From the IMG/VR virus record IMGVR_UViG_2526164619_000013, positions 1-4,911 of that record: a stretch of 4,911 bases of DNA; one strand, given 5' to 3'. The notes below the pieces were generated by a model. It saw only the letters and a program-made list of their open reading frames with translations, ran no database searches and was not told where the DNA came from. Both the position numbers and the translations under genes were made by a program. This document shows positions 1-4,911 of the stretch, piece by piece. The number at the start of each line of letters is the position of its first letter. The first letter of the stretch is position 1. This DNA comes from a virus. Its lineage: Duplodnaviria; Heunggongvirae; Uroviricota; Caudoviricetes.

Positions 1-158
1 TCACCAGTCAAAACTTTTCACCAGCGTCAGCTCGCCAGCATTACGCATCGGTACAATAAATGTTTCCTGTTTCTCATTGACCGATCCTTCATCGGTGATC
101 AGCGTCAGTTGGGCGGTGGTTAATTCCATTTCGCTGCGCCCACCATAGTAGTTGATAT
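1..158 (-). pseudogene. 3' fragment (about 52 codons plus stop) of an unidentified gene whose 5' part is replaced by the IS911-like element
   Basis: The minus-strand frame is open from the IS boundary at 158 to a TGA stop at 3..1 (plus-strand tca), giving ...NINYYGGRSEMELTTAQLTLITDEGSVNEKQETFIVPMRNAGELTLVKSFDW*. The ORF-track entry 1..237 is a read-through that begins inside the IS inverted repeat. The sequence looks protein-like, but I cannot assign a family. Confidence 0.35.
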
Positions 159-1365
<1,207 letters not shown>

Positions 1366-1370
1366 ATCAC

Positions 1371-1406
1371 CTCTGTTCAGGTGGCCAAATTCAGTGTGCC
1401 ACTTCA
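1371..1406. repeat. IS911-like left terminal inverted repeat (IRL)
   Basis: Reverse complement reads TGAAGTGGCACACTGAATTTGGCCACCTGAACAGAG, the partner of 159..194. It is immediately followed (minus-strand sense) by GAGGTGAT-ATG. Confidence 0.85.
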
Positions 1407-1666
1407 GTGTGGCTGAAGCTGAAGTGCGACCGCTGATTGGCGATGTGGTGGCGATGGACTGCGCCGAAGATGTTTACCGTACCGCGCTGGAACAGACGGG
1501 GATCGATATCCAGGGTATTCACCCCGGTGCGTACCGCAGCATGGTGAAGTTTGCCGTTGAGCAGAAGCAGACGGCCAAATCCTCTCCCCGTGTGGCGATG
1601 GATCAGGCCAGCGCATCGACGTTTGCGGCAGATTTCCCCGGTGCAAAACTGAAACGAGGTTACTGA
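1407..1666 (+). pseudogene. 5'-truncated phage gene (C-terminal about 86 codons), possibly the scaffold/protease gene that precedes the head genes; truncated by the IS911-like element
   Basis: The frame is open from the IS boundary to TGA at 1664..1666 (...[85 protein letters not shown]). Its stop lies 1 nt before the next ATG, and the RBS of the next gene (GAGG 1656..1659) is embedded in its 3' end, so it is the upstream member of the operon. The track ORF 1334..1666 begins with a TTG inside the IS and is an artefact. The function is inferred from position only. Confidence 0.55.
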
Positions 1667-1667
1667 T

Positions 1668-2150
1668 ATGAATACTTTTCAGACACACATGAACCAGTAC
1701 CCGGCACCGGGTATTCCGGGGGCGTTTGCCAGTGCTAACCCTCATGCCTCGTATGTGGCGGGAGATGGCGGGCTGATTACCGGCCCTGACGGGCTGGTAA
1801 TTGCCCGGTTTGCCTGGGTAACCAAAGGTGTTGCCGCTAATAAGGGGGCCGGCGCACCGGCGGGTTTTGTTCCTCGTGACGGGCAGGCTTCCATTGTGGA
1901 ATGGCTGGCCGGGGACTCGAACACCATTTATCCGGGGCGTGAATGCACCCTGATGGTGTCGGGGGATTTCTGGGCGCTGACCACCACTACTGCGACGATC
2001 GGGCAGAAAGTATTTGCCTCACTGGCCACCGGGGAGATAGCCACGGGGGCGGCTGGCACCTCGATGGCGGGGTTTGTCGAAACCTGGTTTTCCGTTGCCA
2101 GCGCTGCGGCGGCAAAAGAAGTCATTAAGATCAGTACCTGGAGCAAATAA
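1668..2150 (+). CDS. Phage head-module protein, 160 aa (possible decoration or minor head structural protein)
   Basis: ATG at 1668 with GAGG 8 nt upstream. It is Gly/Ala/Thr-rich and its stop overlaps the next start (TAATG at 2148..2152). It sits immediately upstream of the putative major capsid gene, as a decoration gene does in lambda-like head modules. The functional assignment is inference from synteny and composition. Confidence 0.75.
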
Positions 2151-3178
2151 TGAATAAATTTAAACAGCATTATGCGACGGCAAGTCGTGACTACGGGATT
2201 ATTCTTCCCGGAGCACAGGCTTATTTGCCGAAGGAGTACGCCGCCGATTACGGACTTGCGATGGACGCGCAGCCTGCGCTGGTCACAGCGGCTAACAGCG
2301 GTATCCCTGCGTATTTCACCAATTACGTTGAGCCAGAACTGATCCGCGTGCTGGTGACGCCGATGAAAGCCGCTCAGATTCTGGGCGAAACCAAAAAAGG
2401 TGACTGGACGACACTGTCGGCACAATTCCCGATTGCAGAATCTGACGGGGAGGTGAGTTCCTACGGGGATTACAGCAACAACGGGGTGGTAAGCGTAAAC
2501 GTCAACTGGGTACCGCGCCAGAGCTATCACTTCCAGACCTTCACCGTATGGGGCGAACGTGAGCTGGAGATGTACGGCGCAGCCCGTATTGGCTGGGCGG
2601 CAGAGCTGAACGTGGCGTCAGCACTGACGCTGAATAAGTTCCAGAATAAGTCCTATTTCTACGGTATTGCCGGACTGACGAACTACGGTTTGCTGAATGA
2701 TCCGTCGTTATCTGCACCAATCACCCCGGATACCGTTGACGGTAAACTGAAGTGGGACGACAAGGACGGACAGGGCGTGTATGACGATATCGTGAAACTC
2801 TTTAAGCAACTGGTGAAACAGACTAACGGCCATATTGAGCGTACCGACAAAATGAAACTGTGCATGTCGCCGCTGGCAGAGGTGAACCTCACCAAAACAA
2901 ACCAGTACAGGGTTAACGTGTCCGATCTGCTGGCGAAAAATTTCCCGGCGATGACCATTGAAACGGCGGTGGAATACACCTCTGACGCTGGCGAGCTGGT
3001 ACAGCTTATCGCGGAGCGTCTGGGTGAACAGGATACAGGCTATTGCGCTTTCACTGAAAAAATGCGCGCCCATGCGGTAGTGGCAGATACGTCTTCCTGG
3101 AAACAGAAAAAATCCGCTGGTACCTGGGGGGCGATTATTCGCCAGCCGCTGGCGTATGCACAAATGCTGGGGGTGTGA
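2150..3178 (+). CDS. Putative phage major capsid protein, 342 aa
   Basis: ATG at 2150 overlaps the upstream stop, with GGAG at 2140..2143. It is the largest ORF of the cassette and sits where the major capsid gene sits in lambda-like head modules (about 340 aa expected). It has no obvious similarity by eye to lambda E, HK97 gp5, P2 gpN or T7 gp10, so family membership is unassigned. Confidence 0.8.
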
Positions 3179-3181
3179 GTT

Positions 3182-3529
3182 ATGGCTGAAATGGTAACAG
3201 TGGGCTGCAAACTGCCGAACGGTCTGGTGCTGGAAGTGGGTCAGAAACGGGTTCAGGTGGCAGGCTGGCGGAATAATGCGGTTAAAATTGTGGGGGGCTA
3301 TGGTCTGACGCAGGTCGATAAGGTGTTTTTTGACGCCTGGCTGGCGGAGCACGGACAGCAACCTTATGTGAAAAATGGCGTTATTTTTGCGCAGGATAAG
3401 GCGAACAGTGCAGTCTCGCAGGCTACGGAGCAGAAAGCCGTTAAATCCGGCCTTGAACCGCTGCCGCAGAAAAATCCGGCTCCGGGCGTTAACCGCAATG
3501 ATGAAGTGATGGGTAAACCTCAGGAGTAA
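3182..3529 (+). CDS. Phage head-module protein, 115 aa (possible head-tail joining or DNA-packaging accessory protein)
   Basis: ATG at 3182 lies 3 nt after the capsid stop, with a G-rich SD (GGGGGTG 3169..3175). It continues the co-oriented coupled operon. Function unknown. Confidence 0.75.
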
Positions 3530-3534
3530 ACGCT

Positions 3535-3990
3535 ATGGGTACGGTGACGTTTGACTGTCGGATGTTTGTCAGTCTGTACCCGGAGTTTTCCACGGTGACA
3601 CCGGAGCTACTGACGGCGGTGTTTAACCGGGCGACCGCGTTGTACCTGGATAACACGGACGACAGTCCGGTTACCGACCTGAAGGAGCGGGAACAGCTTC
3701 TGTTCCTGCTGGTTGCGCATCTGTGCGCATTGCGGGGGCTGGGAAACGGGAGAGACGGGCAGGCTGGTCTGGTGGGGCGTATCACCAGTGCGTCGGAAGG
3801 TTCTGTATCGGTATCGGTGGATAATAGCGGCAGTAATGATGCGTCGTGGTGGTATCTCCAGACCTCCTGGGGTGCTGACTACTGGCAGGCGACAGCGCCA
3901 TACCGCTCAATGCAGTATCATTCCGGGGGGGCACCTTCGCGATATCCGGGGCATTATTACCGGGGATACGGGAGGGGGCGTCGATGGTAA
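3535..3990 (+). CDS. Phage head-module protein, 151 aa, with a Gly/Arg/Tyr-rich C-terminal tail
   Basis: ATG at 3535 with AGGAG at 3522..3526 (8-nt spacing). The N-terminal about 75 aa look globular; the C-terminal about 75 aa are low complexity (…[82 protein letters not shown]). The stop at 3988..3990 overlaps the next gene's ATG at 3984. Confidence 0.7.
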
Positions 3991-4568
3991 ATAAAGTCAC
4001 AGGTGGCAAACAGTTCCGGCAGAAGCTGAAACAGGTTGCCGCGAACCTTTCATTGGGTAAAAAACTCAAAGTGGGTTTTCTTGAGGGAGCAACTTACCCT
4101 GACGGTACGTCAGTGGCTTATATTGCCGCAGTTCAGGAGTTTGGTGGAAGAGCGGTCATACCCGCCCGTGAGCAGACGCTCCACTTTCGCTATAACGAAA
4201 AAACGGGAGAAACCGGGCACCGCTTTGTCAAAGCCGGTAAAGGGAATTTTGTTCAGGATGTGGTTATTCCTGAGCACACGGTCACCATTCCCCCCCGTCC
4301 GTTCTTCCGTAAGATGATCGAACATAAAAGTCCCGAATGGGGCGAAAAAATGGCGACCTTATTACGGGCGAATGATTTTGATACTGCGACCGCTCTGGTG
4401 TGTATGGGAGAACATATCAAAGGGCAGTTGCAGATGTCTGTTCGCGACTGGGAAAGTCCGCCCAACGCTGCATCCACTGCCCGGCAAAAGGGTTTTAACA
4501 ACCCGCTTATTGAAACCGGACATATGATGGACAGCGTTGATTATTCTGTAGACGGGGGCAAAAAATGA
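3984..4568 (+). CDS. Phage head-module protein, 194 aa (possible head completion or head-tail connector protein)
   Basis: ATG at 3984 is preceded by GGGAGGGGG (3970..3978) and overlaps the upstream stop. Its TGA stop at 4566..4568 overlaps the next ATG (ATGA). The position corresponds to head-completion genes in lambda-like head modules. Function is inferred only. Confidence 0.78.
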
Positions 4569-4602
4569 ACTTTCACGGTATTGTTTCCGGCGCAGTACGT
4601 CG
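4565..4602 (+). pseudogene. Next operon gene, truncated after about 12 codons ([12 protein letters not shown]) by the IS1 insertion
   Basis: ATG at 4565..4567 overlaps the upstream TGA (ATGA coupling). The reading frame runs directly into the IS1 terminal inverted repeat at 4603 and then hits a stop inside IS1. Confidence 0.5.
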
Positions 4603-4625
4603 GGTAATGACTCCAACTTACTGAT
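4603..4625. repeat. IS1 terminal inverted repeat (insB-proximal end)
   Basis: The 23-bp GGTAATGACTCCAACTTACTGAT has the characteristic IS1 end. The insB stop codon (4620..4618) lies within it. Confidence 0.85.
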
Positions 4626-4911
4626 AGTGTTTTATGTTCAGATAATGCCCGATGACCTTGTCATGCAGCTCCACCGATTTTGAGAACGACAGTGACTTCC
4701 GTCCCAGCCTTGCCAGATGTTGTCTCAGATTCAGATTATGTCGCTCAATGCGCTGAGTGTAACGCTTGCTGATAACGTGCAGCTTTCCCTTCAGGCGTGA
4801 TTCATACAGCGGCCAGCCATCCGTCATCCATACCACGACCTCAAAGGCCGACAGCAGGCTCAGAAGACGCTCCAGTGTGGCCAGAGTGCGTTCACCGAAG
4901 ACGTGCGCCAC
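4618..4911 (-). CDS. insB: IS1 transposase InsB, C-terminal 97 codons (N-terminus beyond the window edge)
   Basis: Translation (V)[96 protein letters not shown] is near-identical to the IS1 InsB C-terminus, with a handful of substitutions relative to the E. coli K-12 IS1 sequence as I recall it. The leading M in the ORF track is an edge artefact. Confidence 0.9.

Follow-up and report, generated by a model that had tools for sequence, protein, structure and literature searches.

Among the closest known systems to the locus described here is the head module of phages Bcep781 and BcepNY3 (genus Naesvirus). Bcep781 is a virulent soil Burkholderia phage whose genes are split over alternating strands, and its gp12 was identified as the major capsid protein of the virion through protein sequencing (PMC2771037). 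For two PB1-like members of the genus Pbunavirus, Pa193 and E217, the capsids have been solved by cryo-EM (PMC11456595, PMC10329688). The corresponding capsid proteins, Pa193 gp26 (PDB 9B40) and E217 gp25 (PDB 8FRS), have canonical HK97 folds and build T=9 shells, with residues 1-65 being absent from the maps (PMC10329688, PMC11456595). The cement protein of E217 is a beta-tulip trimer, with 180 copies located at the three-fold and quasi-three-fold axes (PMC10329688).

We analyzed a stretch of DNA of 4,911 nucleotides (hereafter, the window; Table 1), for which a preliminary description had proposed a major capsid gene at positions 2150-3178. This reading was borne out by profile searches, structure prediction and comparison with relatives verified in virions. 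There is very little doubt that 2150-3178 is the major capsid gene of a temperate enterobacterial myovirus with a Bcep781/PB1-like head module, that its product has the HK97 fold and that the gene is stranded in an inert remnant. Virion evidence from related phages, to which the preliminary description had pointed as a check, concurs: by analogy with Bcep781 gp12 (protein sequencing; PMC2771037) and with the capsid proteins of Pa193 and E217 (cryo-EM; PMC11456595, PMC10329688), for which this role has been demonstrated, the 342-aa protein would be the main component of the virion shell. The capsid family has already been described, and the gene at 2150-3178 adds nothing new to it.

Table 1. 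Features of the 4,911-nucleotide window, in order of position
Feature	Position	Strand	Remarks
IS911 (IS3 family) copy, upstream boundary	157..1406	-	Coordinates approximate within a few bases
IS911 orfB	167-1006	-	
IS911 orfA	1033-1365	-	
DUF2213 prohead protease/scaffold gene, 3' fragment, ~87 codons	1404..1666	+	Truncated by IS911
Capsid cement/decoration protein, 160 aa	1668..2150	+	PF23982, PF22758, PHROG 2122, Bcep781 gp13
GGAG Shine-Dalgarno site for capsid gene	2140..2143	+	Read from sequence
Major capsid protein gene, 342 aa	2150..3178	+	HK97 fold; DUF2184/PF09950-related Bcep781/PB1-like family
Conserved phage ORF, 115 aa, between capsid and neck genes	3182..3529	+	PHROG 2085 (unknown function), E 2.5e-45
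DUF4054 virion structural protein	3535..3990	+	Pfam PF13262, E 2.8e-17; PHROG 302, E 1.8e-42
Tail-completion/Neck1-type protein, 194 aa	3984..4568	+	PHROG 222, E 1.3e-51
IS1 copy, partial, runs off the window, downstream boundary	4603..4911	-	Annotated as IS1 family transposase

The capsid gene and its family

The capsid ORF starts with ATG and, according to the ORF listing and composition, encodes a protein of 342 aa (~37.8 kDa). Its start codon (2150-2152) overlaps the TAA stop codon of the upstream cement gene (2148-2150) in a TAATG junction, and the GGAG motif is located 6 nt 5' of the ATG, among the last codons of the cement gene. Judging from these sequence features, the arrangement would fit translational coupling of the cement and capsid genes. 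The size and position given for the ORF in the preliminary description were confirmed. Homologous proteins are numerous, with 4456 of them found at E≤1e-5 in a collection clustered at 90% and 638 clusters at 50% identity recovered at E≤1e-3 in an exhaustive search. This conservation is well above chance, and the ORF is genuine.

Lambda E, HK97 gp5, P2 gpN and T7 gp10 are all shell proteins of tailed phages with the HK97 fold. The preliminary description had seen no resemblance of the ORF to any of the four, and BLASTP, phmmer and Pfam agree. Comparison of the capsid ORF with lambda E, HK97 gp5, P2 gpN and T7 gp10A by BLASTP and phmmer yielded nothing significant (the best BLASTP match had an E-value of 0.16 over 45 aa, and the phmmer scores were negative), and none of the models PF03864 (lambda E), PF05065 (HK97 gp5), PF05125 (P2 gpN) and T7 gp10 matched it at E≤0.1. 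Kinship to the classical coat proteins is at the level of the fold only. Whereas HK97 gp5 is covalently cross-linked, the capsid encoded in the window would presumably be stabilized by a separate cement protein. The accompanying suggestion of a less-characterized capsid family held in one respect, in that the family is distinct in sequence from the classical four, but not in the other: with high-resolution structures available since 2023, it is no longer poorly characterized.

The profile search that had been suggested as a check led to a structural family. The 342-aa protein matched PHROG 264 (major head protein), the family of Bcep781/AP22/PB1-like capsid proteins, with an E-value of 6.2e-91 and essentially over the full length, residues 11-342 being aligned to positions 10-321 of the 321 in the profile. 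Bcep781 gp12, the nearest experimentally verified relative, is only 50% identical to it (over 331 aa). Among PDB sequences, phmmer aligned query residues 26-341 with Pa193 gp26 (E 7e-20) and also retrieved the capsid protein of E217 (E 6e-19). When PDB was searched with the family profile, the E-values for Pa193 and E217 rose in significance to 3e-56 and 5e-53, respectively, and the capsid protein of cyanophage Pam3 was also reached (E 1.8e-4). The homology to the two Pbunavirus proteins is near full-length, at ~24-28% identity.

The match to PF09950 (Major_capside, formerly DUF2184) was confined to residues 156-265, and at 17.1 bits (E 0.0036) the capsid ORF falls short of the gathering score of this Pfam family, 26.8 bits. 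Yet 80 of the 127 aligned relatives of the ORF match PF09950 at E≤1e-3, and near-identical proteins were given the name 'DUF2184 domain-containing protein' by their sources. Thus, the capsid ORF appears to represent a peripheral subfamily that is poorly covered by the PF09950 model. NCBIfam searches produced no match for any of the five ORFs, the capsid ORF included. The weak match to PF09950, together with the lack of an NCBIfam match, explains why PGAP failed to name the gene in most cases: among eight near-identical copies from E. coli, one was annotated as 'major capsid family protein', and the remaining seven had 'hypothetical protein' entries only, without a capsid name. Pfam by itself, at 17 bits and below the threshold, would leave the capsid question undecided, and prophage-calling pipelines will under-annotate this enterobacterial head module. 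It is in annotation that the value of the identification lies; its biological weight is small, the protein being unexceptional within a family for which protein sequencing and near-atomic structures are at hand.

The cement protein and the order of the head genes

The 160-aa ORF upstream of the capsid gene, rich in Gly and Ala (20 and 28 residues, respectively, or 30% in total), had been proposed to be a partner of the capsid protein, and this proposal can now be refined to a cement/decoration protein. The 160-aa protein matched Pfam families PF23982 (XM1_gp53_minor_capsid; E 6e-33) and PF22758 (Phage_cement, E217 gp24/Pam3 gp6; E 1.6e-19), exceeding the gathering score in each case, as well as PHROG 2122 (minor head protein; E 1.6e-71), and is 33% identical to Bcep781 gp13, the decoration protein of that phage. 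These profile matches and the similarity to gp13 identify it as a trimeric cement/decoration protein; its name in PGAP annotation is 'structural cement protein Gp24'. The cement proteins of XM1 and Pam3 belong to the same Pfam families. A phmmer search with the 160-aa protein against PDB sequences gave zero matches at E≤1. The 160-aa protein is thus a cement protein and not a scaffold; BcepNY3 has its scaffold nested within the gene for the protease.

The order of the genes in the window, namely, protease(/scaffold), cement, capsid, small ORF, DUF4054-type and Neck1-type, is that of Bcep781 and BcepNY3. The run from the protease (here the fragment) through cement to capsid is the same in Bcep781, BcepNY3 and the intact E. 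coli prophage locus described below. In E217 and Pa193, too, a PF22758 cement gene lies upstream of the capsid gene and is itself preceded by a large gene of the protease/scaffold type, the cement protein of Pbunavirus being 211 aa long versus 160 aa in the window. Like Bcep781, the source of the window is a phage of the contractile-tailed type. Unlike Bcep781, it is temperate, an enterobacterial prophage whose early genes look lambdoid, represented here by a 3.2-kb fragment. The DUF4054 protein owes its functional assignment to family names only and may have a role in head-tail joining. The 115-aa ORF had no credible match in Pfam, NCBIfam or PDB; small unannotated ORFs, Bcep781 gp11 and BcepNY3 gp10, are found at the matching position, the likeness being one of position.

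Several homologues of the 342-aa protein in GenBank are labelled 'capsid and scaffold protein' or 'hypothetical protein', as might be the case if the ORF encoded a different part of the head, namely, a scaffold, decoration or minor capsid protein, that was mislabelled as the major capsid protein through homology transfer. However, the homologue is the shell protein present in 535 copies in the cryo-EM models of E217 and Pa193 (PMC10329688, PMC11456595), the decoration role is filled by the upstream gene, and the scaffold has its own place in BcepNY3, within the protease gene. We consider the probability of such a mislabelling to be negligible and, on the strength of gene context and the cryo-EM assignments, reject a scaffold or decoration identity for the capsid ORF in favor of the major capsid protein.

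Predicted fold and assembly

Structure prediction was the second check suggested in the preliminary description. The elements by which the HK97 fold is recognized are the N-arm, the E-loop hairpin, the P-domain with its long spine helix and the A-domain. Given a diverse alignment of 127 relatives, AlphaFold produced a model of the capsid ORF with a mean pLDDT of 89.3 and a pTM of 0.83. An earlier run with a shallow alignment (41 sequences, 67-94% identity) had resulted in an unusable model (pLDDT 47.4), for which the Foldseek matches pointed in the same direction, with TM-scores of only ~0.35. The best Foldseek match of the 127-sequence model in PDB was Pa193 gp26 (E 1.5e-26, TM 0.78), followed by the E217 capsid protein (TM 0.74) and then, in this order, by the capsid proteins of XM1, Pam3, FCWL1, T1, Sf11 and TW1, along with encapsulins. 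In BFVD, nearly all named matches were capsid proteins, and the top ones had the HK97 fold. Thus, HK97-fold capsid proteins came out on top in both databases. At an alignment offset of +26, the long helix of the model (residues 149-171) coincides with the backbone helix of Pa193 (175-197), and the hairpin at 90-124 coincides with the Pa193 E-loop (126-140). Judging from the model, the 342-aa protein has the HK97 fold.

The capsid proteins of Vibrio phage XM1 (7KMX), Pam3 (8HDT), FCWL1 (9KMG) and T1 (9KZJ) have the HK97 fold variant in common with the model (Foldseek E-values of 1e-15 to 1e-17), and the TW1 capsid protein (5WK1) shares it as well (E 7e-11). For these five proteins, the TM-scores normalized to the target range between 0.64 and 0.75 at a sequence identity of 13-15%, and Pam3 is the only one that the sequence profile detects (at the E-value of 1.8e-4 given above).

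The presence of encapsulins among the Foldseek matches, with TM-scores of 0.6-0.75 normalized to the target, raises the question of whether the 342-aa protein could be the shell of a non-viral, encapsulin-like nanocompartment. However, the E-values for encapsulins are 1e-14 or worse, as opposed to 1e-26 for phage capsid proteins, and the identity to encapsulins is only 12-16%. The neighboring genes encode a phage protease fragment, a cement protein, a DUF4054 protein and a Neck1 protein, genes for terminase, portal, sheath and baseplate are found at the intact locus, and a cargo gene is absent. Membership among encapsulin shells, which would entail a non-phage operon and a cargo, is effectively ruled out by this gene context, and we assign next to no probability to a nanocompartment as opposed to a phage capsid.

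The only low-confidence stretch of the model, the disordered residues 37-53, brackets residue ~41, which aligns with residue 66, the first ordered residue of the E217 and Pa193 capsid proteins. Together, these observations suggest an N-terminal propeptide of ~40 residues. The proteins also differ in length: the Pbunavirus capsid protein has 382 aa, of which the N-terminal 65 are missing from the maps, and the window protein has 342 aa, with a predicted leader of ~40 residues.

What the locus itself shows is that the protein is homologous to verified capsid proteins and has the HK97 fold, that the gene order is conserved and that sequence features of coupling are present; the steps of assembly, cleavage, expansion and cementing are modelled on E217, Pa193 and Bcep781. 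By this analogy, the capsid protein and the DUF2213 protease/scaffold would co-assemble into a procapsid, and the N-terminal propeptide of ~40 residues would be lost at maturation. The shell would expand as DNA is packaged, and trimers of the 160-aa cement protein, in a presumed stoichiometry, would then clamp it at its three-fold and quasi-three-fold axes. The capsid of an intact relative probably has a T number of 7, given that the genomes of close phage relatives are 44-48 kb in size, versus T=9 in E217 and other Pbunavirus capsids with their 66-kb genomes.

A prophage fragment between IS911 and IS1

The 3.2-kb block at 1404-4607 is 99.7% identical to myovirus prophages of E. coli, with the best match being the prophage of E. 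coli strain RMDEC364. The latter carries, in this order, a small terminase gene, a large ORF, which by its position would be the large terminase, DUF1073 portal-type, head morphogenesis and DUF2213 protease genes, the cement and capsid genes, neck genes, a DUF3383 sheath-type gene, and baseplate and fibre genes. Prophages of this type are temperate myoviruses, and the early genes in RMDEC364 are lambdoid-looking (replication protein P and an Rz-type lysis cassette). The RMDEC364 copy is itself probably defective, because an IS66-family element (ISCro1) interrupts it between the neck genes, at 18405-21020, and split DUF1627 pseudogenes are also present.

On the upstream side, the protease gene, which is intact in RMDEC364 (1350 bp, 13914-15263), has been reduced by IS911 to a 3' fragment matching positions 343-427 of the 428 in the profile of PHROG 2229 (head maturation protease; E 1.6e-31). 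Matches to the window from position 158 onwards are annotated as 'IS3-like element IS911 family transposase', and the terminal inverted repeat of IS911 is visible at 1381-1406; the cut in the prophage block falls at 1404-1406. The first 158 bases derive from yfaP, a chromosomal gene (99.4% identity to E. coli), and this segment is present in 5375 of the 5426 E. coli genomes; IS911 thus joins unrelated DNA to the prophage fragment. On the downstream side, similarity to the prophage stops at 4607, the terminal repeat of IS1, GGTAATGACTCCAACTTACTGATAG, can be seen from 4603 onwards, and the cut by IS1 falls at ~4603-4608. It truncates a small ORF at 4565-4607 (14 codons, ATGAACTTTCAC...), which overlaps the stop codon of the 194-aa gene as ATGA and has a counterpart in RMDEC364 encoding a 64-aa hypothetical protein (18161-18355).

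None of the 5426 complete E. coli genomes had the yfaP-IS911-prophage-IS1 arrangement, and in none of them did a single place hold at least 80% of the window; the exact IS911/prophage junction had no match among contigs representing one genome per species. The absence of the arrangement from the E. coli genomes points to a deletion or rearrangement mediated by IS elements in a lineage rich in them, which may be Shigella-like. Genes for terminase, portal, intact protease and tail are all missing from the 4.9-kb window; in principle, the missing head genes could reside elsewhere in the source genome, of which the window covers 4.9 kb. With the head module orphaned in this way, the capsid gene is most likely no longer a working one but an inert relic that was stranded recently. 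The window offers a clean example of a prophage that IS911 and IS1 have pared down to a piece of its head genes.

The five complete ORFs of the remnant are all still open, and over its 3.2 kb the block is separated from the RMDEC364 prophage by no more than 8 substitutions and one 1-bp indel. Both observations could be taken to mean that the cement, capsid and neck genes are not simply decaying but persist because they benefit the host or serve a parasite, for instance, by providing dominant-negative capsid subunits that hamper superinfection by phages with this type of head, or capsid subunits exploited by a satellite. The window would then hold a domesticated structural-gene remnant, not junk. 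However, a very recent IS-mediated truncation predicts near-identity equally well, and with the upstream operon context lost to IS911, no phage late promoter is left in the window. The substitutions in the capsid gene itself are three synonymous changes and A116V (codon at 2495-2497; Val in the window). Ala is kept at position 116 in at least 90% of 41 close relatives: if anything, A116V hints at relaxed constraint and may reflect relaxed selection in the remnant. We know of no host-beneficial or parasitic function for the Bcep781/PB1-like capsid family. Retention for such a role is very improbable, and a recently stranded relic remains the preferred explanation.

Two further peculiarities of the remnant were observed. 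A 110-aa ORF at 1334-1666 is a hybrid, with a TTG start codon and ~23 codons derived from the end of IS911 and the remainder from the C-terminus of the protease/scaffold; it could give rise to a fusion peptide if there were outward transcription from IS911. Shortly before the DUF4054 gene ends, at ~3974 (G-run 3975-3978), the window has one extra base compared to the RMDEC364 prophage, which alters the last codons and shifts the stop, so that the protein has 151 aa in the window and 152 aa in RMDEC364; the downstream 194-aa gene is unaffected.
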